Shown here piece by piece: positions 804 through 27,668 of a DNA stretch of 44,967 nucleotides. A program made the translations under genes and the position numbers. Source of the stretch: an uncultured delta proteobacterium. GTDB taxonomy: Bacteria; Myxococcota_A; Polyangia; Polyangiales; Polyangiaceae. The notes under the pieces were generated by a model that saw only the letters and a program-made list of their open reading frames with translations, made no database searches and had not been told where the DNA came from. The stretch spans positions 300,948-345,914 of the forward strand of contig CAVSWE010000003.1 in assembly GCA_963731595.1 (NCBI GenBank), read 5' to 3'. How positions within the stretch are numbered: position 1 is the stretch's first letter; each line of letters starts with the position of its first letter.

Positions 804-942
804 CACTCGCCGACGGACCACGCGCTAGCTTCACGGGGCCTCGCCCGGATGACTGCAGCGGCCCGTGGACGGGCCGTTTCAGCCGGGACCGCGAGCCCGG
901 AAACGAGCACGGCGTCGACCACGCCGGGAAAGGAAGCGCACG

Positions 943-1750
943 ATGGAGCATAGCGGCCCGCTCATCGCCGGCGTCGGGCTCACCGACCCTGCCCGGCGCA
1001 GCCATTGGCCGGCGAGGCTGGACCTGGCGCAGAGCGCCTCGGGTCTCCTGCTCGCGCTTTTCATGTGGGCGCATATGGCCTTCGTCTCGTCGATCCTGCT
1101 TGGCAAGGACGTCATGTGGATGGTCACGAAATTCTTTGAAGGCTATTTTCTCTTCGGCCGGTCCTATCCGGGGCTTGTCTCGACCGTGGTCGCGCTGGTC
1201 ATCGCGCTCGTGGTAACGCACGCCATTCTGGCGCTGCGCAAATTCCCGATTAACTACCGTCAGTTCAGCACCTTTCGCGGCCATATGCGGATGCTGCGGC
1301 ACGAGGACACAACGCTTTGGTTCTGGCAGGTTGTCACTGGCTTCGCCCTGTTCTTTCTCGCCTCGGTGCACCTCTACATCATGCTTACCCGGCCCGACCG
1401 TATCGGGCCGTTCGAATCCGCCGACCGGGTGTGGAGCGACCATTTCTGGCCGCTGTATATCGTGCTACTGCTGACCGTCGAGGTGCACGGCGGGGTCGGC
1501 CTGTACCGGCTTGGCCGTAAAATGGGGTTGGTTCGCAGGCGGCGATGCGAACGCGGTGCGGCGTCGGCTCAAGCTCGCCAAATGGGCGCTGACGGCCTTC
1601 TTTCTGGTCCTTGGCGTGGCGACTCTGGCCGCCTATATCAAGATCGGCATCGAGCACCGTGACCACTATGGCGAGCACTACGTTCCCGCGGCGCAGCAAG
1701 CGTCGTCACCCCAACCCGCCGCTGGGGGCGCGGCGGGGAGCCCTCGGTGA
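943..1750 (+). CDS. frdC: quinol:fumarate reductase dihaem cytochrome b membrane subunit (Wolinella type), +1 frameshift at ~1511-1516
   Basis: [11 protein letters not shown]...[14 protein letters not shown]...[54 protein letters not shown]...GLYRL aligns along its length with W. succinogenes FrdC. The C-terminus ..[16 protein letters not shown] continues in the +1 frame (ORF 1511..1750). An extra G in cttGGccg breaks the frame. The frdC stop overlaps the frdA GTG (GTGA). Confidence 0.8.
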
Positions 1751-3765
1751 ACGTGATCTACACCGACGTGCTGGTGATCGGCGGTGGCCTCGCCGGGTTG
1801 CGGATCGGCATCGGTGCCAAACGCCGCGGCCAAGACGTGATCATCCTGTCGCTCGTCCCGCCCAAGCGCTCGCACTCTGCGGCGGCGCAAGGCGGCATGC
1901 AGGCGAGCCTGGGCAACGTCGTCAAGGCGATGGGTGACAACGAGGACGTGCATTTCGAAGACACCGTGCGGGGCAGCGACTGGGGCGCCGATCAGCGCGT
2001 CGTGCGCATGTTCGTCGACACGGCGCCCAAGGCCGTGCGCGAGCTTGCCGCGTGGGGCGTGCCGTGGAGCCGCGTGCAGAAAGGTGACCGGAAGGTGATC
2101 ATCAACGGGCAGAAGGTCACGATCACGGAGCGCGACGAAGCGCATGGACTGGTGATGCAACGCGACTTCGGTGGTACCAAGAAATGGCGCGCCTGCTACG
2201 TCTCCGACGGCACGGGTCACGCCATGCTGTACGCGATGAGCGACCAGGCAATCGCCCACGCGATCAGCGTGCACGAGCGCATGGAGGCCCTGGCGCTGAT
2301 CCACGACGGGTCGCGCTGCTATGGTGCGGTAGTACGCAACCTCGTGACCGGGAAATTGGTCGCGTACGTCGCCAAGGCTACCGCCATTGCGAGCGGCGGC
2401 GCGGGACGCCTCTATCGCGCGACGACCAACGCGGTCATCTGCGAGGGCATCGGCACGGCGCTGGCGTTGGAGACCGGCGTGGCAATGGTAGCCAACATGG
2501 AGGCGATCCAGTTTCACCCGACGGCAATCTTTCCGGCATGCATTCTGGTCACCGAAGGCTGCCGTGGGGACGGTGGATTGCTGCGCGACGCTGCGGGCAA
2601 GCGCTTCATGCCCGACTACGAGCCGGAGAAGAAGGAACTCGCCTCGCGCGACGTCGTATCCCGGCGCATGGAAGAGCACATCCGCAGGGGCGCGGGCGTG
2701 AAGTCACGGTTCGGCGAGCATCTGTGGCTCGACATCACCCTGCTCGGGGCCAAGCACATCGACAGCAACCTGCGCGAAGTGAAGGAGATCTGCCACTATT
2801 TCCTCGGCATCGATCCGATCAAGGATTGGATACCGGTGCGACCGGCACAGCATTACACGATGGGCGGGATCCGGACCGACCACACCGGCGGTAGCCCGAC
2901 GCTCAAAGGACTCTACGCCGCCGGCGAAGCCGCGTGCTGGGACCTGCACGGCTTTAACCGCCTGGGTGGAAACTCGGTCGCGGAAACCGTCGTCGGCGGC
3001 ATGATCGTGGGCGAGTTCATCGCCGATTTCTGTGCTCGTCCCGAGAGCAACCTGCAGTTCTCCACCGGCCTGATCCGCGAATTCCTGGAGCACGAGCAGG
3101 CCAAGCTCGACGCGCTCGCCGGTAACCGGGGCGGGGAAGAAGCCAACGCATTGCGGGTCCGAATGCAGGAGATCATGACGACCAAGGTCGGGATCTTCCG
3201 CACCGGCGGGGAGCTTGCCGCCGCGGTCGAGGAGCTGCAGTCGCTGCTGCGGCGCAGTCAGAACATCGGCCTGCGCTGCACCGCAAGTGGCGCAAATCCG
3301 GAGCTCGTTTCCGCCTACCGGGTCCAGAAGATGCTGCGGCTGGCGCTGTGCGTCGCCTACGGCGCGCTGACTCGGACCGAGAGCCGGGGCGCGCATTTTC
3401 GCCATGACTATCCGCGGCGCGACGACGCCGAATGGCTGAACCGCACGCTAGCAACGTGGAAGAGCGCCGACGACATGCTGCCGACGCTGGCACGCGAATC
3501 GCTTGACGTGATGCAGATGGAGCTGCCGCCGGGGTGGCGCGGATATGGGGCGAAGGACTACGTCGAGCATCCCGACACGGCGCGTCGTACCGCGGAGGTG
3601 GAGGCGATCAGGACCAGGCTCGTCAGTGCCGGCCGCGGGGTCGTACAGGAGGCCCTGATGCCGTACGCTGAGCTCATGCCCGAGCGCTTCCGCGGACCCA
3701 ACGAGCGCATCGATGAGCCGCTGCCACCGTCTCCCGCAGGCCCGCAACGACCGAGCCCGACATGA
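1747..3765 (+). CDS. frdA: fumarate reductase flavoprotein subunit
   Basis: 672-aa ORF with GTG start. It has an N-terminal FAD Rossmann fold ([11 protein letters not shown]), the covalent-FAD His region ([10 protein letters not shown]), and the active-site motifs [11 protein letters not shown] and HYTMGGI typical of FrdA/SdhA. Confidence 0.92.
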
Positions 3766-3822
3766 CCGGAGCCACCGCCATGGCCATCCCCGCCGGGGCC
3801 GCCTGAACGACCGCGGCGCAAG

Positions 3823-4536
3823 GTGCGGATTAGCGTCCTGCGCTACAACCCGCAGGAGCGCGGCAGTGTTCCCCGCATGCAGGCCTACGAACTCGAAGAG
3901 GCCGAGGGAATGACGCTGTTCATCGCGCTCAACGAAATCCGCGAAAAGCAGGACGCATCCCTGCAATTTGACTTCGTCTGCCGCGCCGGGATATGCGGCA
4001 GCTGCGGGATGCTGATCAATGGGCGCCCAGGGCTCGCCTGCCGTACGCTGACAAAGAACCTGGACCCGGAGATCACGCTGGCGCCCCTGCCGGTCTTCGA
4101 ATTGATCGCCGACCTTTCGGTGAACACCGGCAAGTGGATGCGGGCGATGAGCGAACGGCTGCAGACCTGGGTGCACATGCGCCAGAAAGAGGTGGACACT
4201 TCCCGGCTCGAGGAGCGCATGGAGCCGGAGCTGGCGCAGAAAATTTACGAACTTGATCGCTGCATTGAATGCGGGTGCTGCGTCGCCGGTTGTGGCACCG
4301 CGCGCATGCGCGAAGACTTTGTCGGCGCGGTCGGCCTGAACAAGATCGCCCGTTTCCGGCTCGACCCGCGCGACACGCGCACCGACGCAGACTTCTACGA
4401 ACTGGTCGGTGACGACAGCGGTGTATTCGGTTGCATGTCCTTGCTCGCTTGCCACGATGTCTGCCCGAAGGAGTTGCCGCTCGCAACGCAAATCGCCTTC
4501 ATGCGTCGCAAGATGGTGAGCATCGGTTGGAAATAG
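3823..4536 (+). CDS. frdB: fumarate reductase iron-sulfur subunit
   Basis: 237 aa. It carries the 2Fe-2S motif CRAGICGSCGMLINGRPGLAC and the 4Fe/3Fe cluster motifs CIECGCCVAGC and CHDVCP. Confidence 0.9.
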   Translation: MRISVLRYNPQERGSVPRMQAYELEEAEGMTLFIALNEIREKQDASLQFDFVCRAGICGSCGMLINGRPGLACRTLTKNLDPEITLAPLPVFELIADLSVNTGKWMRAMSERLQTWVHMRQKEVDTSRLEERMEPELAQKIYELDRCIECGCCVAGCGTARMREDFVGAVGLNKIARFRLDPRDTRTDADFYELVGDDSGVFGCMSLLACHDVCPKELPLATQIAFMRRKMVSIGWK

Positions 4537-4568
4537 CAGCGTCTTTTTGCACCCTATGTGGAGGAGTC

Positions 4569-5575
4569 ATGAAGGTCGCAACGAAGTTTGCAACACTAAG
4601 TGTCGCACTGGCTAGTTTAGCGATTGCGTTCGGGGCACCCGCACAGCAGCCGATCATCATCAAGTTCAGCCACGTCGTTGCCGTCGACACGCCCAAGGGC
4701 AAGGGCGCGGAGAAATTCAAGCAGCTGGCCGAGGAGCGTACGAAGGGCCGGGTCAAGGTCGAGGTCTACCCGAACAGCACGCTGTACAAGGACGGCGAGG
4801 AAATCGACGCCCTGCAGCTGGGCTCGGTGCAGATGCTCGCCCCCTCGGTGGCCAAGTTCGGGCCGATGGGGGTGCGCGAATTCGAAGTCTTCGACCTGCC
4901 GTACATCTTTGACGACTTCGGCGAGCTGCACAAGGTCACCGAAGGCGCGGTTGGGAAACTGCTGTTCCAGAAACTCGATTCGAAGGGCATCGTCGGTCTT
5001 GCCTATTGGGACAACGGCTTCAAGGATTTCAGTGCCAACAAGCCGCTTAGGCTTCCCGGCGACGTCAGGGGTCTGAAGATGCGCATCCAGTCGTCGAAGG
5101 TGCTCGATGCCGAAATTCGTGCCCTCGGGGGGATTCCGCAGGTGATGGCCTTCTCCGAGGTGTATCAGGCGCTGCAGACCGGCGTGGTCGACGGCACCGA
5201 GAATCCACCGTCGAATTTCTATACCCAGAAGATGAACGAAGTGCAGAAGTATCTGACCCTGAGCGATCACGGCGTCATCGAATACGCGGTAATCGCGAAC
5301 AAGAAATTCTGGGATGGCTTGCCGGCGGATATCCGCACCATCCTCGAAGGCGCGATGAAGGATGCGACCAAATACGCCAACGACATCGCCAAGGAGGAGA
5401 ACGACAAGGCGCTCGCGGCGGTCAAGGCGACCGGGAAGACTGAAATCCTGACGCTCAGCCCCGATGCGAAGGCGGCCTGGAAAAAGGCGCTCTGCCGGTG
5501 CATCGAGAGATGGAAAGCCGGGTCGGCAAGGACATCATCCAGGAGGTCTACAAGGAAACCGGGTTCAAGCCCTGA
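4569..5575 (+). CDS. dctP: TRAP transporter substrate-binding protein DctP (C4-dicarboxylate), one -1 frameshift in an A5 run at ~5481
   Basis: MKVATKFATLSVALASLAIAFGAPAQQPIIIKFSHVVAVDTPKGKG... is a typical DctP with signal peptide. After ..AAWKK the conserved C-terminus (LPVHREMESRVGKDIIQEVYKETGFKP*) reads in the -1 frame and ends at TGA 5573..5575. The as-given ORF instead runs on to 5711. Confidence 0.8.
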
Positions 5576-5624
5576 CCGAGCGTTGCAGCGCCTGATGCGC
5601 GAGCCGGGTTCGACGCAAACCGAC

Positions 5625-5651
5625 GCCGCTGCGGCCCGCAGCGGCTTTTTT
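5625..5651 (+). terminator. rho-independent terminator (or attenuator) between dctP and dctQM
   Basis: gccgctgcgg-ccc-gcagcggc is a perfect 10-bp GC stem, followed by tttttt. It sits 50 nt after the reconstructed dctP stop. Confidence 0.5.
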
Positions 5652-5694
5652 GTGTGCAGCAGAACGGCGGTCGACCAACCGGGGACGCTTGCGC

Positions 5695-6306
5695 ATGCTG
5701 AAGCTCCTTGACCACCTCGAAGAGTGGCTCATCGCGCTGCTCATGGGCGGCGCGACGTTGATCATCTTCGTGGCCGTCGTTCACCGCTATGCCGCGGGCC
5801 TGCCCATCCCCGTGGTGCAGGACTGGCTGCTTGCGCTCAACCTGTCGTGGGCGCAGGAAGCATGCATCTACATGTTCGTATGGATGGCCAAGTTCGGTGC
5901 CGCTTACGGCGTGCGCACCGGCATCCACGTCGGCGTGGACGTGGTGATCAATCACCTGCCCGACGGCGTGCGCCGCAAGTTCATTCTTTTCGGACTGGGC
6001 GCCGGCGCGCTGTTCACCGGCGTGGTGGCCTCGTTCGGCGCCAGTTTCGTGTGGCAGCTCGCCCACACCGACCAGACCTCGCCCGACATGGAGCTGCCGA
6101 TGTGGCTGGTCTATCTGGCCATTCCCTGCGGCTCGGGGCTGATGTCCTTCCGCTTCCTCCAGGTGGCGTGGAACTTCTGGCGCACGGGCGAGCTGCCGCA
6201 TCACGACCCGACCGACGTGGCGGGCGTCGAAAAAATTGCCGACCAGGACGCCCACGTCGGCCTGGCGCAAGACAATCTTTTTCCCGCGCCGCCTGGCAAG
6301 CGCTGA
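5695..6306 (+). CDS. dctQ: TRAP transporter small permease DctQ
   Basis: MLKLLDHLEEWLIALLMGGATLIIFVAVVHRY... has four predicted TM helices, typical DctQ size and position. Confidence 0.8.
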   Translation: MLKLLDHLEEWLIALLMGGATLIIFVAVVHRYAAGLPIPVVQDWLLALNLSWAQEACIYMFVWMAKFGAAYGVRTGIHVGVDVVINHLPDGVRRKFILFGLGAGALFTGVVASFGASFVWQLAHTDQTSPDMELPMWLVYLAIPCGSGLMSFRFLQVAWNFWRTGELPHHDPTDVAGVEKIADQDAHVGLAQDNLFPAPPGKR

Positions 6307-6309
6307 GCC

Positions 6310-7605
6310 ATGACCTCCGCCATCATCTTCGGGCTGTTGATCGCGCTCATGCTCACCGGCATGCCCATCTCGATCGCGCTCGGGCTCACGGTCCTGACTT
6401 TCGTGTTCACCATGACCCAGGTGCCGATCGAATCGGTGGCCCTGAAGCTGTTCACCGGCATCGAGAAGTTCGAGATCATGGCCATCCCCTTCTTCATCCT
6501 CGCCGGCACTTTCCTCACCCATGGCGGGGTGGCGCGGCGGATGATCAATTTCGCCGCCTCCATGGTCGGCCATTGGCATGGAGGGCTGGCGCTCGCAGGC
6601 ATCATCGCCTGCGCGATGTTCGCGCTTGTATGCGGTTCGAGCGTCGCCACGGTGGTGGCCATCGGCTCCATCGTGCTGCCGGAGATGGTCAAGCGCGGCA
6701 TCCCCATGGACTTCGGCGCCGCCGTGATCACCGTCGCCGGTTCGCTCGGCATCCTGATGCTGCCGTCGATCCCCAAGGTCATCTACGCGATCGCCACCAA
6801 CACCTCGATCGGCGCGTTGTTTGTCGCCGGCCTGCTGCCGGGGATCCTGCTGACCACGATGCTCTGCCTGGTCACCTGGTATATCGCCAAGAAGCGCAAT
6901 TACCCGCGGCTGCCGCGCGAAAGCTGGGGCGCGCGCTTCAAGGCGTTCCGAGAGTCCGTCTGGGGCCTGATGCTCGTGGTCATCATCATCGGCGGCATCT
7001 ACTCGGGGATCTTCACCGCCACCGAGGCGGCCGCGATGGCCGCGGTGTACGCGTTCTTCGTGTCGGTGTTCGTGTACAAGGCCATGCCGCTCAAGGATTT
7101 GCGCAAGGTGCTGCTGACCTCGGCCAACATGAGCGCAATGCTGCTCTACATCATCACCAACGCGGCACTGTTCTCGTTCATCCTCACCAACGAGAACATT
7201 CCGCATGCCCTGGCGGACTGGATTATTGCCAAGGATCTGGGCTGGGTGGGGTTCCTGTTGCTGGCCAACGTGCTGTTGCTCCTGGCCGGCAATTTCATGG
7301 ACCCGTCCTCGGTCATTCTCATCATGGCGCCGATTCTCTACCCCGCGGCGATGACGCTCGGGATCAATCCGGTGCATCTCGGCATCCTGATCGACGTCAA
7401 CATGGAGGTCGGGCTCTGCCATCCCCCGGTGGGGCTCAATCTGTACGTGGCCTCGGGCATTTCGCGCCTCGGCATCACGCAGCTGACCAAGGCGCTGGTT
7501 CCCTGGCTCGTCACCATGCTGATCTTCCTGGTCATCGTCACCTATTGGCCGGCGCTGTCGACCTGGCTGCCGCAGAAGATGGGTATGATGGGGCCGTTGC
7601 CCTAG
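6310..7605 (+). CDS. dctM: TRAP transporter large permease DctM
   Basis: 431-aa polytopic membrane protein with DctM-family sequence throughout (MTSAIIFGLLIALMLTGMPISIALG...). It starts 4 nt after the dctQ stop. Confidence 0.9.
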   Translation: MTSAIIFGLLIALMLTGMPISIALGLTVLTFVFTMTQVPIESVALKLFTGIEKFEIMAIPFFILAGTFLTHGGVARRMINFAASMVGHWHGGLALAGIIACAMFALVCGSSVATVVAIGSIVLPEMVKRGIPMDFGAAVITVAGSLGILMLPSIPKVIYAIATNTSIGALFVAGLLPGILLTTMLCLVTWYIAKKRNYPRLPRESWGARFKAFRESVWGLMLVVIIIGGIYSGIFTATEAAAMAAVYAFFVSVFVYKAMPLKDLRKVLLTSANMSAMLLYIITNAALFSFILTNENIPHALADWIIAKDLGWVGFLLLANVLLLLAGNFMDPSSVILIMAPILYPAAMTLGINPVHLGILIDVNMEVGLCHPPVGLNLYVASGISRLGITQLTKALVPWLVTMLIFLVIVTYWPALSTWLPQKMGMMGPLP

Positions 7606-7647
7606 GTCCGGCGGGTCGAATCGACAAACGGCCGCTTTTCCGCGGCT

Positions 7648-7953
7648 ATGTTACTCCGACCCACTTCGCAGATAAACTTCAGTTCTTTTGGCCCAACCAG
7701 TATGCGGCTCGCAAAGTTCGTCAAGGTACGCGAGGAGAAATTTGGCGGCGTCCTCTTCGAGACGCGCTCGGAGAAGGTTTTTACGCTCAATCCAACGGCC
7801 ATGGCGGTCGTGCGCGAGATCGAAGCAGGCCATGACGAGCGCGAGATCGCCATGCGACTGAAGGCGCGCTTTAACGACAGTACCGACGTGATCGAGCGCG
7901 AAGTCGTCGCGTTCATCGCGGAGCTGCGGCAGAGAAGCCTTGTCGAGGGTTGA
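7648..7953 (+). CDS. PqqD/MftB-family peptide chaperone (RiPP recognition element protein)
   Basis: (M)RLAKFVKVREEKFGGVLFETRSEKVFTLNPTAMAVVREIEAGHDEREIAMRLKARFNDSTDVIEREVVAFIAELRQRSLVEG matches the PqqD-family pattern (FG..L...., LN.ta..vw, C-terminal fi..L). An alternative start is ATG 7702. Confidence 0.65.
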   Translation: MLLRPTSQINFSSFGPTSMRLAKFVKVREEKFGGVLFETRSEKVFTLNPTAMAVVREIEAGHDEREIAMRLKARFNDSTDVIEREVVAFIAELRQRSLVEG

Positions 7954-7957
7954 GCGC

Positions 7958-9112
7958 GTGACAACATTGGCAACGGATAACGGACCCGACTCCGCGATCC
8001 CAGCGACGACCTCGACCTACGCCTGCTCGGAGGACCTCGCCGCGCCACTCTACGTGGCCTGGCAGATCACCAACGAATGCAACCTCGCCTGCCTGCACTG
8101 TATCGAGGAGAGCGGGCCGGGCAAGGCGTTCGCAGATGAGCTCGACGCGGCGCAGATATTCTCGGTGCTCGACCAGTTGCTGGACCACCAAGTCCCCTAC
8201 ATGTCCTTCTCGGGCGGCGAGCCTATGCTGCATCCGCAGTTCTTCGAGATGGTGGAGCACGTCTGCGCGCGTGGCGCCCAGCTCAAGATCGAGACCAACG
8301 GTCATTATCTGTCCGCCGAAAACTGTGCGCGGATGAAGGAACTCGGCGTCAAGGCGGTCCAGGTGAGCCTCGACGGCGCGTCCGCCAAGACGTTCGAGCG
8401 TATGCGCGTGCGCGGGAACTTCGATCGCACGCTCGATGGCCTGCGCAACCTTCGCGCGGCAGGCGTGCCCGTGGAGATTAACTTCTCGCCCGCCTGCTTC
8501 AACGTCCATGAGATCGGCGCGGTCGTCGACCTCGCATACAAGCTGGGCGCATACAGCTTCTACACCGGGACGCACGATGTACACCGGCAACGCCGTCAAG
8601 GCTTGGCGCCACCTGGAAGTTTCGGAGCCGAGCAATACGAGGCGTTCTTCGCTGTTCTGCGGCAAAAAGCCGAGGAGTACCACGGCCGCATGCGCGTCTA
8701 CTTTCACGAGGCGGGGTTGCTCGAGGAGCTGCGTTATCGCCTGCAGCACCCGGCTGCGCTGCTGATCGTGCTCCCGAACGGCCTGGTCAAGCTCATCAAC
8801 GCCTTGCCCTTCGTGTGCGGCGATTTTCGCCGCCAGACGCTGCGGGAAATCTGGGCGAATTTCCGCCGCGCCTGGCACGACCCGCGCGTGGCACAGTTCG
8901 TCGACGAGCTTGGCACCGACCCGGGCGGACACGGACGCTGCACCAATGGGTCTATCTTTGACTGCGCTGCCCGTGCGATCCGGCCGTTCGGCGCGCACGG
9001 CGCTGCACCGGCTGCTCGCCGTTTGCCGCCTGGTGCGCTACCGGTTTTTCCTATATGCCGGGCTGCTGCCGTATCTGCTCGGCGCGGCCTGGGCCTACGC
9101 TCGCGCTGGTAG
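7958..9112 (+). CDS. radical SAM enzyme, MftC/PqqE-like (SPASM-family-like) maturase, paralog 1 of 3. The 3' end is uncertain and there is an internal compensating frameshift pair at ~8570/8623
   Basis: ..PLYVAWQITNECNLACLHCIEESGPGKAFADEL..FSGGEPMLHPQFFEMV..QLKIETNGHYL..VQVSLDGASAKTFERMRVRGNFDRTLDGLRNLRAAGVPVEINF aligns block by block with mycofactocin maturase MftC (CLTWELTYRCNLACVHCLSSSGKRDPGEL...GGGEPTVRPDF...VQISLDGATAEV...). The CxxxCxxC motif follows the W-x-I-T motif. Its tail overlaps the start of the prenyltransferase gene. Confidence 0.72.
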   Translation: MTTLATDNGPDSAIPATTSTYACSEDLAAPLYVAWQITNECNLACLHCIEESGPGKAFADELDAAQIFSVLDQLLDHQVPYMSFSGGEPMLHPQFFEMVEHVCARGAQLKIETNGHYLSAENCARMKELGVKAVQVSLDGASAKTFERMRVRGNFDRTLDGLRNLRAAGVPVEINFSPACFNVHEIGAVVDLAYKLGAYSFYTGTHDVHRQRRQGLAPPGSFGAEQYEAFFAVLRQKAEEYHGRMRVYFHEAGLLEELRYRLQHPAALLIVLPNGLVKLINALPFVCGDFRRQTLREIWANFRRAWHDPRVAQFVDELGTDPGGHGRCTNGSIFDCAARAIRPFGAHGAAPAARRLPPGALPVFPICRAAAVSARRGLGLRSRW

Positions 9113-9897
9113 CCTTCGACGCGCCGATTTTCTGGAGCGGCCTCGCGGGTGTAGTGCTCGCCGTAATCGGCGTCGAGGCATTCAACGAGTATTTCGATTC
9201 ACGCATGGGCACCGACCGCGTCTTCAACCCGGCCGAACTCCCGCCGATGTCTGACGCAGTGCTCTGGTTGGGCATTGCGGCCTTCGCCGGCGCGCTGGCG
9301 GTCGGCATCTACCTGACCGTGCGTGGCGGCTGGCCGATCCTGGCCTTCGCACTCCTGGGTGGAACGGCGGCGATCTTTTATGTGGCGCCCCCGATACGCT
9401 GGGCCTATCGTGGCCTGGGCGAACTGGTCATCGCCCTGTCCTACGGGCCCTGGATGGTACTGGGCAGCCTCTACCTGCAGAGCCAGGCGCTGTCGTGGGG
9501 GGCGCTCTTCGCGTCGCTCGTACCGGGATGCCTGATCATGGCGCTCGCGGTCGTCAACGCGATTCCCGATTACCACCAGGATCGCTTGGTCGGCAAGCGC
9601 AATCTCGTCGTGCGGCTCGGCCGCCGGCGCGCGGTTTGGCTGTATCTTGCCCTTGCGGCAGGCGGACTGCTGGTGGTGCCGGTCGGCGTAGCGAGCGGCA
9701 TCTCCCCGCCACCTGCCTGGCGGCCTTACTGGCGGTGCCGCTGCTCGTGGCCAGCGGCCGCTGCGCGCTGCGGCACTTATGAAACACCGCGCGCCTTTGT
9801 TCCCGCCGTGCGCAGCATCGTCGGCTGCTATCTGGTCGCCGTCGTGCTGTTCACCGCCGGCGTCCTGTGCAGTGGCGTAGCGTCCTTGCGCCCATGA
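8946..9897 (+). CDS. UbiA-family polyprenyltransferase, MenA-like (1,4-dihydroxy-2-naphthoate polyprenyltransferase-like). As given it carries ~3 frameshifts (~9095, ~9715, ~9780)
   Basis: Reconstructed MGLSLTAL..RLVRYRFFLYAGLLPYLLGAAWAYA / LALVAFDAPIFWSGLAGVVLAVIGVEAFNEYFDSRMGTDRV...NAIPDYHQDRLVGKRNLVVRLG has both UbiA Asp-rich motifs (N-x3-D-x5-D and D-x3-D). The NAIPDYHQDRLVGKRNLVVRLG segment matches E. coli MenA NNLRDINSDRENGKNTLVVRLG. The start overlaps the paralog-1 radical-SAM gene; the stop overlaps the paralog-2 start (ATGA at 9894..9897). Confidence 0.7.
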
Positions 9898-10861
9898 ACT
9901 GGATCGATCGCCTGCGCGCGCCGCTGTTCGTGTCCTGGCAGATCACGCGCGACTGCGACCTGTGCTGCCTGCATTGCTGCACCGAGTCGGCGCCGGGGAA
10001 GCGGTTGCCGGACGAACTCGACGCTGCCGAAGCGACGTGGCTGGCCGAGGAGATCGTCCGCAACGCAGTGCCCTACGTGATGCTTTGCGGCGGCGAGCCT
10101 TTGGTCGTGCCGCACTTTTTCGCCCTTGCCGAAGTCGCTGGGGCGGGCAGGCGTCCAGCTGAAGATCGAGACGAACGGGCAGCGCTTCGATGCCAAACTC
10201 GCCGCCCGGCTCGCCCGCCTGCCCGTCCGGTCGGTACAGATTAGCCTGGACGGCGACACACAGGAGGTCTACGAGCGCCAGCGGCCCGGGCGGCTTCGCT
10301 CGCCAAAGCCCATGCGGCCTGCCGCGCCGCTCGTGCGGCCGGGCTGCCGCTCGAAGTCACCTTTGCGCCGACCCGGCTCAACATTCACCAGGCCGGGCCG
10401 GTCATCGAGCGGGCGCGGGCGCTTGGTGCCTTTCGCTTCAATACCGGGCGGCTCATGCGCATCGGCACCGCCGCGCGGCTGTGGGAGAAGCTCGAGCCTT
10501 GCCGAGGAGCAATACCGGGAATTCCGCGCCTGTTGAACCGCATGGCCCGGCGCCTAGAGGGGCAACTGGAGATTTGCCATGCTCCGTTTGACCTCGCGGA
10601 AGGGCTGCGCGGCAGCCTCCAGAACGCCGCCGGCAACCCTGCTCGTGCTGCCCAACGGCTGGGTCAAGGTTGCCGCGGCACTGCCGCAGATCTGCGCTGA
10701 CTTGCGCCGCCATAGCCTTGACGGAGGCCTGGGAGGCCTACCGCAACGCGTGGCGGAGTGATACAGTGCTGGCGGAAGTACGGCGCGCGGTCGCCGATCC
10801 ATCGCGTCACGCGCGAGGCCAACAGTTGGCAGTTGTTGCCCGTCGCCCCGGTGTGACCTGA
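9894..10861 (+). CDS. radical SAM enzyme, MftC/PqqE-like, paralog 2 of 3. It is broken into at least 4 ORF pieces by about five 1-nt indels, from sequencing error or real pseudogenisation
   Basis: The pieces MNWIDRLRAPLFVSWQITRDCDLCCLHCCTESAPGKRLPDELDAAE..CGGEPLVVPHFFALAE / VQLKIETNGQRFD..VQISLDGDTQEVYERQRPG / ..AARAAGLPLEVTFAPTRLNIHQAGPVIERARALGAFRFNTGRLMRIGTAARLWEKLEP / LLVLPNGWVKVAAALPQICADLRRHSL / EAWEAYRNAWRSD.. are collinear with paralog 1 across four reading frames. Confidence 0.6.
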
Positions 10862-10872
10862 CGGAGGGAAAA

Positions 10873-11025
10873 TGAGCGAGTTGAACCTGACGATCGAAGC
10901 CGCCAAGACCGGCGACGAACGCAAGACCGATACGGTGCAGCCGGCGCAAAAGCCGCATGGGAAACGCCCAAGCTCGAGGACGTGTCCGAGCAGGTGATGG
11001 CCCAACCGTATATCCGCTTCACCTG
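10873..11025 (+). CDS. candidate RiPP precursor peptide (51 aa, reconstructed across one frameshift in an A4 run at ~10949-10952); PqqA-like C-terminal core
   Basis: A strong SD (ggaggg-aaa-ATG) precedes it. Frame 1 reads MSELNLTIEAAKTGDERKTDTVQPAQK. After a 1-nt indel in caaaag the frame continues as AAWETPKLEDVSEQVMAQPYIRFT* to the TGA at 11023. The W-x-x-P-x-L-x-D-V...E...Y pattern recalls PqqA (WKKPAFIDLRLGLEVTLY). It sits immediately upstream (20 nt) of paralog 3. Confidence 0.4.
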
Positions 11026-11045
11026 AGATACCCAGAACTTTCGCA

Positions 11046-11982
11046 ATGCCGGGGCGTTCGGTAGAAGAGTACCGAGCACCCCTTTTTCTTGCCTGGCAGC
11101 TGACCAACCGCTGCGCTGCGCGCTGCATCACCTGCTGCGAGGAATCCGGTCCCGATAAGGCATGGGGCGATGAGCTTTCCCGTGACGAGGCGATCGCGCT
11201 TGCACGGCGCATCGCGGCGTTCGGCATCGCCTACGTTGCCTTCGGCGGCGGCGAGCCGCTAGGTGTACCGCATTGCTGGGATCTGCTCGAGCTGCTCGCC
11301 GCGGCCGGCATCGCTCTTAAGATCGAGACCGACGGCAGTCACATCGACGCTTCCGCGGCCGATCGGCTCTCGGCGCTCGGCGTCGAGTGCATCCAAATTT
11401 CGGTCGACGGAGCGACAGCGGCGACGCATGAGCGCGTGCGTCCGGGATCGAGCTTCGCCGCGGCGGTCGCCGCCATCGAGCGACTGGTCGCGCGCGGTCG
11501 TGCACCGCAATTGGTGTTCGTTCCCACCCGCTTCAACTGCACGAGATCGTCGCCGCGTTCGATCTGGCGGCAACGCTCGGCTGCGGCGCATTCGTCACCG
11601 GCCCGCTGATGCGCATCGGCCGCGCCGCGGGCGCACTGGCAGCGCATCGCCTGCAGCAGACGAGGAGTGGCGCGCCGCGGTTACCGCGTTGAGAGAACGC
11701 ACCGCGTCGATGCGGCCCCGGAATGGCCCTTGTCGATCTATCCTTGGGACATTCGTTGCGGAGATGGAAACGCGGCTCGAGCGACCGCAGGCGATGCTGC
11801 TGGTCGTGCCCAACGGCAAGGTCAAGCTGCTCAATGCGCTCCCGTTCGCCGCCGCCGACCTGCGCCGCGATTCGCTCGAGGACGCGTGGCGGGCCTATCG
11901 CGACGCCTGGCATGCGCCGGAGGTGCGCGAATTCATCACCCGCTGCCGCAGCCAATCCAGCGCTGCTGATGCACGCCAATGA
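11046..11982 (+). CDS. radical SAM enzyme, MftC/PqqE-like, paralog 3 of 3 (at least 2-3 frameshifts as given)
   Basis: MPGRSVEEYRAPLFLAWQLTNRCAARCITCCEESGPDKAWGDEL..AFGGGEPLGVPHCWDLLELLAAAGIALKIETDGSHID..IQISVDGATAATHERVRPGSSFAAAVAAIERLVARGRAPQLVFVPTRFN, then in other frames ..AFVTGPLMRIGRAAGAL.. and ..ERPQAMLLVVPNGKVKLLNALPFAAADLRRDSLEDAWRAYRDAWHAPEVREFITRCRSQSSAADARQ*. This is collinear with paralogs 1 and 2. Confidence 0.6.
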
Positions 11983-12112
11983 GACATGGCCGATGGTTAG
12001 GAACGACGGTTGACCCCCGCGCCAGAAACCCCAATACTTAAGCGGCTGTGATTGAATACTTACCCGTCGTAGCGAAGCTTTTGAGGGCCCGGGAGCCCGC
12101 TGATCGGTTGCG

Positions 12113-12442
12113 ATGCATCGACTGACATTGGGACTACTCGCCGCCTGCACCGCTGGCGCAATCGCGGTTGCGGCCCAGCCAGCGCCGGACAGCTCCCGCG
12201 GCGAGCTCCTCTATTCCACCCATTGCATCGGTTGCCATAGCGCGCAGGTGCATTGGCGCGAAAAGAGGCTGGCGACAGACTGGGCAAGTCTCAGGATGCA
12301 AGTATTTCGATGGCAGATGAACACGGGCCTCGCCTGGAGCGACGAGGACATCGTCGCTGTCACCCGCTATCTGAACGATCTCTACTACCGTTTTCCGACG
12401 CCGGACAGGCCGGTGGCATTTCAGGGGTCGTCGGGTAACTGA
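12113..12442 (+). CDS. secreted mono-haem c-type cytochrome (109 aa)
   Basis: It has a signal peptide (MHRLTLGLLAACTAGAIAVAAQPAP) and a single CxxCH haem-binding motif (HCIGCHS). Same strand as the radical-SAM cassette, 130 nt downstream of it. Confidence 0.65.
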   Translation: MHRLTLGLLAACTAGAIAVAAQPAPDSSRGELLYSTHCIGCHSAQVHWREKRLATDWASLRMQVFRWQMNTGLAWSDEDIVAVTRYLNDLYYRFPTPDRPVAFQGSSGN

Positions 12443-12585
12443 TCCCGGGCTGCCGCGTCAAATCGATGTGAGTCGCTCGTTCTTTGCCGTCGACAAATGC
12501 TCTAGCTCGGGAGGCGCGCGCATACGACGGTCGAGTCCATCTCCCAGCGAGTGATCACTCGTGCCCCCAACGCGAGTGTACTGTT

Positions 12586-13095
12586 CTAGCTTGGCCGCCG
12601 CTGCAATAACGTGCCCAGGAGCAGAGCGAAGCCCAGGAAAATGACAAGCGACGCTTGCGCCAGAGTAAGTCCCAGGATCTTAAAGGACGTATCGGAACAG
12701 TCTCCCGTGGCATGCAGCAGTTGGGTCAGTACTTCGCTGACCGCCATGGTGTCCAGCATGTAGGCCAGGCCGGCACTGCAAGAGGCGACGCTTGGTGCCG
12801 GAAAAAGTTGCAGGTACGTCTGATAGCCGGCGACCCCGAGTCCTTCCAACGTCAGGATCGCAGCCATCCAAAGGAGAGCCCGCTGTACTCGACCTTGGGG
12901 CCGCGCCACGGCTGCGGCAAAGAAGACGGGTATCAGGCCAAGATACGTGAGCCGTTGGATGATGCACAAGGGGCACGGTTCGATCCCCAGTATGTGCTGG
13001 ACAAAAAAGCTTGCACCGACAAGACCGGTGCAGGTCACTCCAAGCAAGATCGAAACTTGGGCAGGAGAAGTCAGCACACGCGAAAGCCTATTCAC
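12586..13095 (-). CDS. dsbB: disulfide bond formation protein B (DsbB family)
   Basis: Four TM helices. A first periplasmic-loop CxxC (EPCPLCIIQR) and a second Cys pair (SCSAG ... GDCSD) fit the DsbB architecture. Confidence 0.6.
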   Translation of the reverse strand: MNRLSRVLTSPAQVSILLGVTCTGLVGASFFVQHILGIEPCPLCIIQRLTYLGLIPVFFAAAVARPQGRVQRALLWMAAILTLEGLGVAGYQTYLQLFPAPSVASCSAGLAYMLDTMAVSEVLTQLLHATGDCSDTSFKILGLTLAQASLVIFLGFALLLGTLLQRRPS

Positions 13096-13511
13096 GGAAA
13101 TCGGCCGGCAATGCAGCTCCCCGCGGGACCCAGTACGCTAGGGGAATTTTGCCACGTCCGAGCCTGATCTCAGAAGTTTCTCCTCCGCAAAGGGCTGCTT
13201 CACCGCCCCAGGCCCGACGCGCGGAGCTTGGCCGCAATGGCTGGTGAATTTCGGCTTCACGACCCGGTGATCGCCCGGAGGCGCATCGCGAAATGCGCCT
13301 GGTCTGCGCCAAAGTGGCGCGAACGGCGCCTGGTTGACAGTCGGGGAATCGCCTGGCGGTTGCATGTTAAATCAATAACTTGCGACGCTTACCCTCTTAG
13401 TTGCGCATGAATTAGCGTCGTTGGAGTTTCCTTGAGGTACATCAACAGCCCAGATACGGCTTGGCTATAGGCTTCGTATTGCGGTGCAACAAAATCACGT
13501 CAGGAGCGCCC

Positions 13512-16569: not shown

Positions 16570-17051
16570 TCAGCCCGTGAACTCATGCGCCCTGACCTGG
16601 CCGTGCTGGCGGCGAGCGACGTCTTTCAGCCGCGCGGTGAGGCTCGCGAAGCCGTCGCGCAGCGCGACATACACTTCCTCGTCGTGGTCGCAATTGACGA
16701 CGAGCTCGTGGCCCGGAAGATCCGTGAGGTCCGGATTGCCACCATGCGACGGCATCTGTCGGACACCCTTAAGCGCATTCTTTTCCGCACCCGCCCGGTG
16801 CTCCAACTTCAGCCGGTCAAGCAGCGGTGCCGCGTCCGGAAGGCGCACACGCAAAAGCTGGAACAGATACTGATCCTCCTTGGGATGGTGAAAGCACTCG
16901 CGGAATGCATCGATGTAATAGATCATCGCCCCAGCACGCCGAAATCCGACGTGGCTCCCCGGTCGCGGATCTGGTGCACCAGATAAAGCATGCCGTGCAA
17001 GACCGCCGCCAGCGAACGGTGTTCGTCCTGAATGGCGCGGTTCGCCTGCAT
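16570..17051 (-). CDS. hemerythrin-like (HHE cation-binding) domain protein, one frameshift at ~16930
   Basis: MQANRAIQDEHRSLAAVLHGMLYLVHQIRDRGATSDFGVLG then shifts frame to MIYYIDAFRECFHHPKEDQYLFQLLRVRLPDAAPLLDRLKLEHRAG.., with the H-x3-E / HH..KE motifs of hemerythrin-like domains. ATG 17051 lies 25 nt downstream of the hemN stop. Confidence 0.55.
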
Positions 17052-17075
17052 ATTCGTCCTTCTTTCCCGAATGCA

Positions 17076-18478
17076 TCAGATGATGCGCGAGTTGCGCGCC
17101 GCCCACGCTGCTCACGCAGGTAACGGTCGAATACCATCGCCACCGTGCGAACTAAGAGCCGACCGCGCGGCGTCACGTGGATCGCGTCCGATGCGATTTC
17201 GACCAACCCGTCGTCGGCCAGCGGTGCAAGTGACTTGAGCTCGGTTGCGAAGTAATCGCGGAACGCGATGGCGTACGCGCTCTCGACGCGCTCGAACGAG
17301 ACGGTGAATTGGCACATGAACGCGTGGATCACATCGCGCCGCAAAACGGTCGTCGGCAGAAAGCCGCCAGCCGCGAAAACATGGTAGCGCATCGTCGTCG
17401 AGCCGGGCGTAGTAATCATCCAGAGTACGCAGATTCTGGCTGTAGGACGCACCGACCTTGCCGATTGCGGAAATACCGAATGCCAAAAGATCGCAATCAG
17501 CGTGCGTCGAGTAGCCTTGAAAATTGCGGTGCAGCTTGCCTCACGCTGTGCGACAGCAAGCGCGTCGTCGGGCCGCGCGAAATGATCCATGCCGATGTAG
17601 ACGTAACCGGCGCCGGTCAACTTTTCGATTGCAAGCTCAAGAAGGGCTAACTTGGCCTCCGCCGACGGCAACTCCGCTTCGCTGATGCGCCGCTGCGGCT
17701 TAAACAGATGTGGCACGTGCGCATAGCTGTATAGCGCAAGTCTATCCGGCGCACCGTCGAGCACCTTGTCCAACGTGACGGCCGAAGCCGGCCAAAGTCT
17801 GCCGCGGGAGACCATAGATTAAGTCGATGTTTAAGGAGCGGAAGCCATTCGCACGTGCGGCGTCGAGTACAAATGCGAGTCTCGGCTTCCGATTGAATGC
17901 GGTTCACCGCCTGTTGTACGGCTGGGTCGAAGTCCTGTACGCCGATGCTCATCCGGTTGAAGCCAAGCTCCGAGAGAAGCTTAACCGTCCCGGCGACGCC
18001 AAATGGCGGGGGTCGACTTCGATCGAGCATTCGGCGTCAGGCACAAACGCAAAGCTGTCGTGTAGGACACGCCATAGCAACTGTCATTTCCTCGGCCGAC
18101 AGGAACGTCGGCGTGCCGCCGCCCCAGTGCAACTGTGTGACGGGGGACGCCGAATCGACGAGCCCCGACACGATTGCGACCTCCCTGCCGAGATAGTGGA
18201 TATATTTTGCGGAGCGGCCATGGTCCCGGGTCGTGACCTTGTTGCACGCGCAGTAGTAGCAGATGGTGTTGCAGAACGGCACGTGCACGTACAGCGACAG
18301 CGGCTGCGGCGCGCCGGCTCTGGCGGTTGACAAGCGCGTTAGCGAGATGGTCGGCGGTGAATGCTTCCGTAAAGCGATCTGCCGTCGGATAGGAGGTGTA
18401 GCGCGGCCCAAAGCCATCGTACTTGCGGATCAGATCCGAGTCGAACGGGAGGCCTGTAGTCGGCGTGCAGTGAACCAT
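17076..18478 (-). CDS. hemN: oxygen-independent coproporphyrinogen III oxidase (radical SAM), at least 4 frameshifts as given
   Basis: The pieces [40 protein letters not shown] / [36 protein letters not shown] / [22 protein letters not shown] / [67 protein letters not shown] / [24 protein letters not shown] are collinear with E. coli HemN across several frames. Confidence 0.7.
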
Positions 18479-25463: not shown

Positions 25464-26699
25464 TTAATGCCGATTCTGGTAGTTCAAGGATTGATGAAAC
25501 GAATCGCGCTGCCAGTCTGGCATTTCGCCGTAAGGATACTCGTTCGAAATCCGGCGACCCGACGCGATGCCGTTGTATAGACCTGGAAGCGATGCATAGT
25601 CGCCTGGGCCGAACGTTCGGCATTCGCCGCGGAAATTCGCATCGCTGCAGAAGATCCAGTAGCCGCGATCGACCCGCAGCGACGACGCTCGTTCGGTGAA
25701 TTTGTCATACAGGTCATCCTGGCCCTCGCTACTGAGACGGAATTCACGGCCGGTGAGGTTGGGTCCCGAAAACAGCGTGGCGCTGGCGCGACCGCGTATT
25801 CCGTCGCGTGGCATTTCGCCGCGCTGATCGTAGGACGGGCGAACCGAACTGATACGACCGCTGAGACCGCCGAGTTCCGCATATCGACCCGGAACGAAAA
25901 TTCGACAACCGCCGCGGAAATCGGCGTCCACGCAAAGCTCCCAAGCGCCGCCCTCGACGATCGCTGATTGATATCGCTCAACCGCGTGCGATGAAGCAAA
26001 ATTGGGATCCGGTTGGTCTATCATAAATTTGCTTCCGCCAAAATTCTCGGACTCAAAGAATATGATGCCTCCTTTTGCTCGCGGCGTAATAGCCGGCGGT
26101 GGCAGTGTCGCCATCGGTACCGAAAGCGGACGCGCAGAGCTGATGCGACGCGACCAAGCGTCGAGGATCGGGTAACGGCCCGGGCCTAGGGTCGTGCAAT
26201 CGCCACCGAAGTTAGAGGCGGCGCAGACTTCCCATGCTCCTCCTTCCACCACTGCCGATTGGGGCCGGCCATTAAAGCCGCTCGGACCGAAATTTGACAG
26301 CGTCCGGTCGGTCGAAATTTGATGGCCGCCGAAGTTTTCGTTTTCATAGAATGTGATGCTACCGGTAGGCTGTAACCCTATTACGGGTGTTGTACCAACC
26401 GGCCGTGCGGAGCTGACCCGCCCCGACAGTCCACCGAGGCTTGGATAACGACCGGGCGCGAGGACCGTGCAGCCACCACCGAAATTCTGGTCGAGACACA
26501 GCTCCCATGAGTTGCCGTCGACGATAGCCGATTGCGCACCGTTGTTGAAACCGACGACGCTGAAATTCGGCAGCGATTGGTCAACGGTAATTTGGTGCCC
26601 GGCGAAGTTCTCAGTTTCAAAGAACGTAACGTTGCCCATCGCCGTACCGGAGGCAAATGCCGCGATGCCAAAGATGAAATGCTGCAATAGTCGGTTCAT
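25464..26699 (-). CDS. secreted beta/gamma-crystallin-fold protein with four tandem ~90-aa repeats
   Basis: Signal peptide MNRLLQHFIFGIAAFASGTAMG, then four repeats of the pattern (I/V)TF(F/Y)E.ENFGG...(I/V)...(L/P)NF......(S/A)(A/I)(V/I)(V/E)..G.WE(L/V)C.(D/A).NF(G/R)G.C..(L/F).PG.Y..L... The first three are followed by SGR(V/I)SSARP; the fourth ends WIFCSDANFRGECRTFGPGDYASLPG..RRIS. These are Greek-key beta/gamma-crystallin signatures. Confidence 0.7.
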   Translation of the reverse strand: MNRLLQHFIFGIAAFASGTAMGNVTFFETENFAGHQITVDQSLPNFSVVGFNNGAQSAIVDGNSWELCLDQNFGGGCTVLAPGRYPSLGGLSGRVSSARPVGTTPVIGLQPTGSITFYENENFGGHQISTDRTLSNFGPSGFNGRPQSAVVEGGAWEVCAASNFGGDCTTLGPGRYPILDAWSRRISSARPLSVPMATLPPPAITPRAKGGIIFFESENFGGSKFMIDQPDPNFASSHAVERYQSAIVEGGAWELCVDADFRGGCRIFVPGRYAELGGLSGRISSVRPSYDQRGEMPRDGIRGRASATLFSGPNLTGREFRLSSEGQDDLYDKFTERASSLRVDRGYWIFCSDANFRGECRTFGPGDYASLPGLYNGIASGRRISNEYPYGEMPDWQRDSFHQSLNYQNRH

Positions 26700-27668
26700 T
26701 GCTGTTGACCCCTCGTTGGTGTCCACGAACTTTAGCGTTCCGATCGAGCATAGCTGCTTGATAGTTCTAAAGTCTGGCGGAAGCACTGGAGGACGTCTGT
26801 GCGGGATCGCACACAGAGAAGTTCTTCTCCACCTACTAGCACTCGCTATAAAGGGAAAGCCGCTCAAGATCAGTGGCGACGCGGATAGCTACAACCATCA
26901 AGATGGGAACGAGGATTAACGCCAAGCAGGCACCTTGTATCGGTTCATTGATGGGTCCCAAAAATCGCGACTTGTCGGCAACCTTGCTGGCGCGCTAAAG
27001 GTCGTGCCGCGCTTTATTCAGGCGCGACAGATTGGTCAGTTCTGTAAAGAGGGCCCGACTATGGCGGCCACGTAGCTGTGGGTCTAGGCATCAAGATCGA
27101 TGACACTATCGGCCAAACGGCATAATGTCCTGTCTGGACCCATGATTTCATTAGTTATGGTCGACAGCGCCATCGAACGACCACTGTCGGCGACTTCGCG
27201 GTATGGCCGCTTTTAGCCGGGCGTTGACCGGCAAGAACGTATCTCGGTTCTTGACCGCCTCCCGTCGCGTTGCGGACTGGGTCCTCGGTGGCTCAGACCG
27301 CTTGCCTGGGCCCCGATAGGTATCGGGCTGTGTCACAATCGACCAACAAGGCCACCAGCACGACGACTACCACGGTTCCTAAGCCGCTCGGATACCACCC
27401 ATAGCTGTGATGCCATGGACCAATCCGACATTGCGCCGACAGACCGCGCGCTCCGCCATACGGCGGGAAACGTACCCAATGCTTGGAAGATTTCCCATCG
27501 GCTGTCAGTGCAGCAGCGGACACTTGCGCTGGATCGGCGAGCGCAGTGGATATGCTGGCCCATCATGACTTCGAACTCGATATTGGCGGCGCACAGCTTC
27601 GCTCAGTGCGAGGGAAGTGCGAGCAAGTACCGCGCGCAGCGGATTACGGTAAGAAAGCGGTCGGTGAG

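Follow-up and report, generated by a model that had tools for sequence, protein, structure and literature searches.

A ribosomal peptide with a PqqA-like block, encoded with a PqqD-family chaperone, radical-SAM enzymes and a UbiA-family prenyltransferase: a candidate precursor of a housekeeping product other than PQQ

What is made from the short open reading frame (ORF) that lies between two genes of radical S-adenosylmethionine (rSAM) enzymes in a contig from an uncultured delta proteobacterium (CAVSWE010000003.1)? The stretch analysed here, the window, is 44,967 nt long and all positions are counted from its first letter. A first-pass annotation, made from the sequence without database searches, had read this ORF as a frameshifted precursor peptide whose C-terminal part recalls PqqA, the precursor of pyrroloquinoline quinone (PQQ). 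The analysis reported below indicates that the gene is real and belongs to a large family, and we consider it reasonably probable that the peptide is the precursor of a peptide-derived housekeeping product, likely prenylated or lipid-anchored, which is not PQQ.

The start of the gene can be read directly in the window: GGAGGG (10863–10868) is followed by AAA and by an ATG at 10872–10874. The first-pass annotation was right about the Shine–Dalgarno sequence 3 nt before the start, but placed the ATG at 10873, one base too far. The uncorrected ORF (10872–10997) encodes 41 aa and ends in KPHGKRPSSRTCPSR; the frame from 10874 reads AAWETPKLEDVSEQVMAQPYIRFT and reaches a stop codon at 11024–11026. 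One missing base fuses both frames into a 51-aa product ending in AWETPKLEDVSEQVMAQPYIRFT. L001, the nearest intact locus, belongs to a beta-proteobacterial metagenome-assembled genome (MAG) and is colinear with the window from 879 to 13170, with 89% nucleotide identity; compared with it, the window has a one-base deletion at 10954. The features of the gene are the following.

10863–10868, + strand: Shine–Dalgarno-like GGAGGG, 3 nt 5' of the ATG at 10872 (direct reading)
10872–11026, + strand: candidate precursor-peptide gene, 51 aa after restoring one base near 10954, stop codon at 11024–11026
Corrected peptide: MSELNLTIEAAKTGDERKTDTVQPAQK[P/A]AWETPKLEDVSEQVMAQPYIRFT, residue 28 being P or A
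10957–10986, + strand: codons W30–S39 (WETPKLEDVS), the PqqA-like conserved block, a putative recognition motif for the PqqD-family chaperone
10996–11023 (start approximate), + strand: codons for the near-invariant C-terminal MAQPYIRFT, the putative modified core

The lost base cannot be placed unambiguously: with an extra A in the A-run residue 28 is Ala, with a base added after CCG it is Pro. Across 85 homologous genes, residue 28 is most often P (45), L (16), Q (13) or K (4), and Ala is not among these top four. Since the homologues carry P, L, Q or K at this position, Pro28 appears more likely than Ala28; the one-base repair proposed at first stands. The choice between Pro and Ala has no consequence for the interpretation.

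The corrected peptide has 1,361 homologues in protein databases, mostly of 51 aa, which, together with the deletion seen against L001, bears out the one-base correction. The best 120 of the 1,361 have E values between 4e-24 and 3e-13, match over the full length and, with few exceptions, measure exactly 51 aa. The homologues carry no meaningful names and no Pfam domain. When 20 close homologues are aligned, the N-terminus is variable and the C-terminal half is invariant. Searched with a profile, a set of 1.84 billion representative proteins yielded 96 clusters at 50% identity, of which the most distant members still end with W-x2-P-x-[LMI]-[ED]-[DE]-V-S-x2-[VI]-M-A-Q-P-[Y/F]-I-R-F-T. The total length ranges from 37 to 53 aa, the N-terminal part being the least conserved in both sequence and length. 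Within the C-terminal half, E40 and Q41 (SEQV in the window) are not conserved and are replaced in other members by SGKV, SGRV, SAKI and similar sequences; Met43, four residues before the tyrosine, is near-invariant, and Tyr47 is replaced by Phe in three clusters.

The DNA tells the same story. In 85 distinct homologous sequences, the codons of MAQPYIRFT show little or no change at their first and second positions, while the third positions vary wherever the genetic code permits, with minor-allele fractions of 0.05–0.56. Because the variation of the core falls at third codon positions, the comparison indicates that the peptide gene is genuine and that its translated product is under strong purifying selection.

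This family is not covered by any curated family. Indeed, searches of NCBIfam and Pfam with the window peptide gave no match (in NCBIfam even at E ≤ 10), and a sequence search of the PDB returned chance-level matches only. The best of these, 9vfj_D (PsaD-like, 698 aa), contains three KPAW(T)xPxLxD repeats that resemble the KPAWETPKLED of the peptide; the match has an E value of 0.01 for the whole sequence and above 100 for each repeat and is probably due to chance. Full-text searches of the open-access literature gave no description of the peptide family, although accounts elsewhere are possible, and one paper that mentions PqqD and UbiA together concerns ordinary PQQ and ubiquinone genes.

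The resemblance to PqqA was examined with six annotated PqqA peptides from plasmid records, in a gapless alignment anchored at the C-terminus. All six share with the family a Trp, a Pro three residues later, an Asp four residues further on followed by a hydrophobic residue, a Tyr ten residues past the Asp, and exactly four residues between this Tyr and the C-terminus. The anchored columns score 19.4, compared with −22 ± 8.5 for column shuffles (z 4.9, p ~3e-5), and every other register scores negative. An hhalign comparison of PqqA with the family aligned 11 columns, the WxxPxxxD-hydrophobic block, with P = 1.3e-4. The PqqA-like arrangement noticed in the first-pass annotation is thus real according to both tests. 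A PqqE-type crosslink between Glu and Tyr, to which the same annotation alluded, is not supported: the Glu column of PqqA (four residues before Tyr) corresponds to the near-invariant Met43 and has a score of −2.0, E40 is not conserved, and three clusters have Phe in place of the Tyr.

PqqD-family proteins are peptide chaperones for modifying enzymes, and hydrogen–deuterium exchange and nuclear magnetic resonance showed that the N-terminal part of PqqA binds PqqD while the C-terminal Glu and Tyr go to PqqE (PMC10906245). Because it is the N-terminal part of PqqA that contacts PqqD (PMC10906245), the WxxPxLEDVS block of the family is probably, by analogy, a chaperone-binding element. It is a better candidate for the recognition sequence than the Lys/Glu-rich N-terminal part, which had been said to look like a leader; this region, the least conserved in sequence and in length, is unlikely to be recognised.

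The genes around the peptide gene were located by targeted tblastn with reference proteins. In L001, the order is frdC, frdA, frdB, dctP, dctQ, dctM, then a PqqD-family gene (83 aa), rSAM1 (333 aa), a UbiA-family gene (316 aa), rSAM2 (320 aa), the peptide gene, rSAM3 (320 aa) and a gene for a small CxxCH protein. The corresponding cassette of the window comprises the following genes besides that of the peptide.

7702–7953, + strand: PqqD-family peptide chaperone of 83 aa, a recognition element (RRE) for peptides made by the ribosome and post-translationally modified (RiPPs)
7958–8961, + strand: rSAM1, orthologue of the single rSAM of minimal cassettes, with CX3CX2C and without the seven-Cys SPASM motif
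8946–9897, + strand: UbiA-family (MenA-like) intramembrane prenyltransferase
9894–10861, + strand: rSAM2, about 40% identical to rSAM1, with several frameshifts in the window
11046–12013, + strand: rSAM3, a third paralogue, with several frameshifts in the window
12137–12442, + strand: small CxxCH (cytochrome c-like) protein directly 3' of rSAM3, whose membership of the system is uncertain

The CxxCH protein gives weak cytochrome c matches and has 95% identity in L001, but is not generally kept across loci.

The distribution of the cassette was surveyed in two ways. Searching one genome per species gave 137 matching stretches, 80 of which are listed; these 80 carriers are all MAGs, mostly from Casimicrobiaceae and other Burkholderiales, with some Gammaproteobacteria. 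The Burkholderiales order, PqqD-rSAM1-UbiA-rSAM2-pep-rSAM3, is complete in 44 of the 53 genome loci with at least 18 kb of sequence. A metagenome scan for a second subtype, with [K/R]-V-MAQPYIRFT, found 109 stretches. Where the contig permits, a PqqD gene is present downstream in 53 of 62 loci, an rSAM gene in 30 of 37 and a UbiA gene in 17 of 22. In distant lineages the order is pep-PqqD-rSAM-UbiA, and altogether one to three paralogous rSAM genes accompany the peptide gene.

The rSAM of the minimal cassettes is 45% identical to rSAM1 and is its orthologue, while rSAM2 and rSAM3, at about 40% identity, are paralogues. The four-gene core keeps its UbiA gene, and its gene order, even between lineages with only 40–45% protein identity. 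Because the rSAM of the minimal lineages is the orthologue of rSAM1, the gene content points to a core system made of peptide, PqqD, rSAM and UbiA, in which the prenyltransferase is as constant as the chaperone. The first-pass annotation had anticipated the precursor role, and the synteny of the peptide gene with PqqD-family and rSAM genes in well over 100 loci, distant lineages included, together with the 1,361 homologues, answers its call for conservation in related loci. No second comparable small ORF is present in the cassette of the window, which agrees with a single substrate, as it had suggested. It had left out, however, the UbiA-family prenyltransferase as a core member as well as the linkage to fumarate reductase and NQR-like operons. 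Two features generally expected of a RiPP precursor are found here: a short ORF that is syntenic with an RRE and a modifying enzyme, and selection on its product.

The chaperone matches PF05402 with 53 bits (cut-off 23.4) and lies below the PQQ-specific and lasso-specific cut-offs (38 bits for PQQ_PqqD TIGR03859, cut-off 46). The three rSAM proteins all have an invariant CX3CX2C and keep the GGE motif. Their best curated matches are AhbD, NirJ and MftC, with 111–124 bits versus cut-offs of 265–650; the score against the MftC model TIGR03962 is 111–122 bits (cut-off 265), and this is the top family for rSAM2 (120) and rSAM3 (111). Against the PqqE model they reach 56–79 bits, with a cut-off of 381. 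They have neither a SPASM match in Pfam (PF13186) nor the seven-Cys SPASM or twitch set of cysteines; only three further Cys are conserved (C103, C123 and C286 in rSAM1), of which C286 alone is in the C-terminal extension. Their database names are generic, such as 'MoaA/NifB/PqqE/SkfB family radical SAM enzyme'. The nearest solved structures by sequence are SkfB, BlsE and PqqE. An AlphaFold (AF2) model of a close homologue of rSAM1 (pLDDT 72.6, pTM 0.77) has SkfB (6efn), PqqE (6c8v) and SuiB (5v1t) as top Foldseek matches, and the predicted fold is thus similar to that of peptide maturases.

The prenyltransferase matches PF01040 with 88.8 bits (cut-off 34.2), and both Asp-rich motifs, NEYFDSRMGTD and DYHQD, can be read in its sequence. 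It is nearest to the MenA models and to UBIAD1, but remains under the cut-off of every MenA model listed (cut-offs 102–555): the best score is 107.5 bits with NF004751 (cut-off 264), and that with TIGR00751 is 69.6 (cut-off 102). Like MenA and UBIAD1, it belongs to PF01040, has both Asp-rich motifs and stands in a quinone-dependent respiratory context; unlike them, its gene is accompanied by those of a peptide, a chaperone and an rSAM enzyme, and its substrate is only putative.

The respiratory context is seen in the window itself, where two groups of genes precede the cassette.

943–4536, + strand: frdCAB, a Wolinella-type quinol:fumarate reductase (dihaem cytochrome b, flavoprotein and Fe-S subunit), a recurrent neighbour of the cassette
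4569–7605, + strand: dctPQM, a tripartite ATP-independent periplasmic (TRAP) transporter, between frdCAB and the cassette

The frdCAB products exceed the cut-offs of the Wolinella-type fumarate reductase models. In 23 of the 53 genome loci, frdAB lie no more than 10 kb from the cassette, on the same strand when upstream and on the opposite strand when downstream. In the metagenome loci of the second subtype, an nqrE- or nqrF-like gene ends at most 500 nt upstream in 17 of 51, and in two loci (L155 and L124) the four-gene cassette lies between nqrE and nqrF. Because the frdCAB and nqr-like linkages recur, it appears that two unrelated lineages have set the cassette beside quinone-reactive complexes. 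The nqr-like operon is a divergent NqrABCDEF-like one (L155, L124, and also L134, L169, L121, L171 and L118), with an RnfC-like Fe-S C-terminus on its subunit A; it carries pep-PqqD-rSAM-UbiA directly after nqrF, save for the two loci with the insertion between nqrE and nqrF. L122 has HdrCBA-like genes after the cassette, together with a second UbiA gene and one for a polyprenyl synthetase. Genes for a TRAP dicarboxylate transporter, a 2-oxoacid:ferredoxin oxidoreductase and malic enzyme are further neighbours.

Some genomes (loci L014, L042, L019 and L040) hold, in addition to an intact cassette, a second and decayed remnant of it directly after frdCAB. In these remnants, only fragments of rSAM2 and rSAM3 are present and the 51-aa peptide ORF is intact. 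The comparison suggests that the arrangement of frdCAB with the cassette is ancestral and that the peptide gene has been selectively retained.

How could these genes work together? The starting point is a real gene under purifying selection, whose product has a variable N-terminal extension, a WxxPxLEDVS block and a near-invariant MAQP(Y/F)IRFT. The 83-aa PqqD homologue would bind the block and offer the C-terminus to the rSAM enzymes. Radical chemistry by rSAM1 would then take place on the C-terminal nonapeptide, the aromatic residue or its surroundings being the most plausible site, with the paralogues rSAM2 and rSAM3 acting too in Burkholderiales; because Met replaces Glu, this chemistry should differ from the Glu-Tyr link of PQQ. 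More tentatively, the modified peptide, or a fragment of it, may receive a polyprenyl chain from the MenA-like enzyme, giving a membrane-anchored product. The product would serve membrane respiratory complexes as a housekeeping cofactor or accessory molecule, and would not be an antibiotic. A housekeeping role is proposed because the core is invariant in distant carriers and the cassette recurs at quinone-linked operons. Likewise, the combination of an invariant core and a variable N-terminus is typical of cofactor precursors (PqqA, MftA) and opposite to that of diversifying antimicrobial RiPPs.

PQQ biosynthesis offers the closest comparison. The two systems have in common a short ribosomal peptide, a PqqD-family chaperone, an rSAM enzyme of the SkfB/PqqE/SuiB group, and the invariant core expected of a cofactor precursor. 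They differ in that the present family has a variable N-terminal extension of 15–30 residues which PqqA lacks, a Met in place of the essential Glu, a Tyr that may be Phe, no pqqB or pqqC, a constant UbiA partner, and rSAM enzymes without SPASM cysteines. Mycofactocin (MftA-MftB-MftC) resembles the system in its PqqD-like chaperone, in the invariant extreme C-terminus, here the presumed site of the chemistry, in the logic of a peptide-derived redox cofactor, and in MftC being the top curated family for rSAM2 and rSAM3. The rSAM scores nevertheless do not reach half of the MftC cut-off of 265, the peptide ends in IRFT and has no C-terminal GVY, and the cassette contains a prenyltransferase instead of homologues of MftD, MftE and MftF; a true mycofactocin system is ruled out on these grounds.

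Several observations weigh against the proposal of a prenylated, peptide-derived housekeeping product. Every chemical step is deduced from sequence. The rSAM enzymes have no canonical SPASM cysteines and score far below the cut-off of every curated family of maturases. The replacement of Tyr47 by Phe in a few members argues against a chemistry that requires a phenol. The UbiA enzyme could use an ordinary small aromatic substrate instead of the peptide. The surveyed neighbourhoods contain no conserved exporter, leader peptidase or other peptidase, or immunity gene; the release of a small cofactor is therefore unsupported, and the whole peptide may be lipidated instead. All of the 80 listed carriers are uncultured MAGs, some copies of the peptide gene are orphaned or lie in decayed remnants of the cassette, and the respiratory neighbourhood is present in about one third to less than one half of the loci. 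Lastly, the density of indels in the window is uneven, with a peak at 9.8–12 kb (see below), and a real, recent decay of this copy may have taken place.

The rival account that survives best, although we find it rather unlikely, divides the pathway in two: PqqD and the rSAM enzyme or enzymes would make a soluble, mycofactocin-like product while UbiA would prenylate a small aromatic head group, as MenA does, and the two products would share nothing but their respiratory context. The affinity of UbiA for the MenA models (107 bits) and UBIAD1 speaks in favour of this division, as do the second UbiA gene and the polyprenyl synthetase gene near the cassette in L122. To our knowledge, no UbiA-family enzyme prenylates a peptide, which also counts for it. 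On the contrary, UbiA is obligate in the four-gene core, in constant order, in lineages at 40–45% protein identity, and it scores well under every MenA cut-off; a housekeeping MenA need not accompany a peptide, a chaperone and an rSAM enzyme.

A second alternative concerns the state of the locus and not the function of the family: the window copy might be a decaying pseudogene in a dead cassette. There are about 90 indel events in total between the window and L001. The region 9.8–12 kb (rSAM2, the peptide gene and rSAM3) has about 20 uncompensated single-base indels, mostly insertions and outside homopolymers, compared with none in the 2 kb of frdA; rSAM2 has 9 events (net +5) and rSAM3 has 7 (net +5). 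This pattern, and the fact that other genomes hold decayed remnants of the cassette with intact peptide genes, are what a dead copy would predict. The spread of the indels is strongly uneven, 9868–13140 being dense relative to 879–5490, and this clustering is unexplained.

The substitutions speak differently. Relative to L001, their numbers at codon positions 1/2/3 are 24/20/77 in rSAM2, 2/0/7 in the peptide gene and 7/8/35 in rSAM3, and the intact frdA shows the same third-position bias (27/11/112). This bias in the broken genes leads us to reject an old pseudogene and favours assembly errors or a very recent decay. Genes outside this region are affected too: frdC and frdB have one net indel apiece, and the HemN-like gene also appears broken. 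Its ORF at 16817–17815 (− strand, 332 aa) matches only the C-terminal domain of HemN, whereas the HemN-like protein of L001 (464 aa) combines a radical-SAM domain with HemN_C; if it is the counterpart of that protein, it is probably another gene broken by an indel. All 24 of the 24 core residues of the peptide are intact, and similarly fragmented genes are present in other long-read MAG loci of the same family. The frameshifts of the window, including the one-base deletion of the peptide gene, are thus most likely assembly errors, judging from these comparisons, and a dead copy is unlikely.

We give still less credit to a third possibility, in which the peptide is a small protein that is never modified, an assembly factor or regulator of the enzymes or of a respiratory complex, and is merely co-transcribed with the other genes. 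In its favour, the modification of the peptide is only predicted, and small accessory proteins such as NqrM do follow respiratory operons. The presence of a PqqD-family protein argues against this scenario, since such proteins are chaperones for modifying enzymes (PMC10906245), as do the PqqA-like recognition block, the hydrophilic character of the peptide and the invariance of its extreme C-terminus, as in PqqA and MftA.

That the cassette makes a secreted antimicrobial or signalling RiPP is very improbable. The architecture of peptide, RRE and rSAM is typical of RiPP natural products, and the nearest structures are the bacteriocin maturases SkfB and SuiB. With these maturases of sactipeptides and streptide, the cassette enzymes share a TIM-barrel rSAM core, CX3CX2C and, putatively, substrate delivery by an RRE, but they lack the canonical SPASM or twitch Cys motif. 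Unlike in SkfB- or SuiB-type systems, the core is essentially invariant over the 96 clusters while the N-terminus varies, as in cofactor precursors; a conserved exporter, leader peptidase and immunity gene are all missing, and the cassette is embedded in respiratory operons.

Finally, a genuine PqqA, with the cassette as a variant PQQ pathway, can be dismissed almost entirely: the W-x2-P-x3-D-hydrophobic ... Y-x4-COOH spacing of annotated PqqA, a partner from the PqqD family and weak matches of PF08042 in 2 of 35 members (best E 0.055, too weak to count) are outweighed by the missing E-x3-Y motif, with Met in the position of Glu and the sole nearby Glu unconserved, by Phe instead of Tyr in some members, by the lack of any match at threshold to the PqqA models PF08042 and TIGR02107, by the absence of PqqB- or PqqC-type domains among the neighbours in all the loci examined, by rSAM enzymes without SPASM clusters that are not PqqE, and by a PqqD homologue under the PQQ_PqqD cut-off. 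PqqA itself has no sequence match in the PDB.

One more element of the cassette deserves mention.

11051–11087, + strand: terminator-like hairpin with a 12-bp GC-rich stem (11051–11082) followed by TTTTT, inside the first codons of rSAM3 (MPGRSVEEYRAPLF)

It starts 25 nt past the stop codon of the peptide gene. In 59 distinct sequences from a 61-locus alignment, 88% of the pair cells are paired, compared with 40–61% in slid controls. Compensatory changes occur at two stem pairs, one of them at the cost of a non-synonymous change of Arg to Glu, Asp or Ala. The minimal pep-PqqD-rSAM-UbiA lineages have no consistent hairpin (median z −0.9; 1 of 78 is terminator-like), and the element thus appears to be specific to the six-gene Burkholderiales type. 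It may act as a leaky terminator or attenuator that gives an excess of precursor transcript or sets the ratio of precursor to enzymes.

Elsewhere in the window, the − strand encodes at 25464–26867 a 467-aa protein with four beta/gamma-crystallin domains. Its gene lies in a stretch at about 20–30 kb where the GC content drops from about 0.65 to 0.56–0.58 and which may be an acquired segment; an FNR/CRP-type regulator is encoded nearby (27669–28454). Rfam and tRNA scans of the whole window gave no matches.

What is new here is the peptide family, the rSAM enzymes without SPASM cysteines, the obligate UbiA partner and the respiratory context; peptide maturation that depends on PqqD and rSAM proteins was already known. 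We know of no precedent for a UbiA-type prenyltransferase as an obligate partner in such a system, nor for its placement in or beside quinone-linked operons. Few cofactors are known to be carved from ribosomal peptides, PQQ and mycofactocin being the free ones. A bolder version of the proposal, which we regard as doubtful but worth stating, is that the cassette makes a third redox cofactor of this kind: an aromatic head group built by rSAM enzymes from MAQP(Y/F)IRFT would be prenylated by the MenA-like enzyme, to give a membrane quinone-like carrier or a bound cofactor for fumarate reductase or NQR-type complexes. Burkholderiales are generally held to make ubiquinone only, the potential of which is too high for fumarate reduction; if the cofactor exists, it could stand in for a low-potential quinone in these bacteria.

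The prediction of a prenylated, peptide-derived product can be tested directly, as the minimal system consists of four small genes which can be expressed heterologously. If it is correct, it implies new enzymology: a UbiA enzyme whose substrate derives from a peptide, and an rSAM maturase that has no SPASM clusters. The family is widespread, with more than 1,300 proteins in databases, 137 stretches in species representatives and 109 more, of the second subtype, in metagenomes, and its product would then be a possible new component of anaerobic respiration in abundant uncultured bacteria of soils and sediments.

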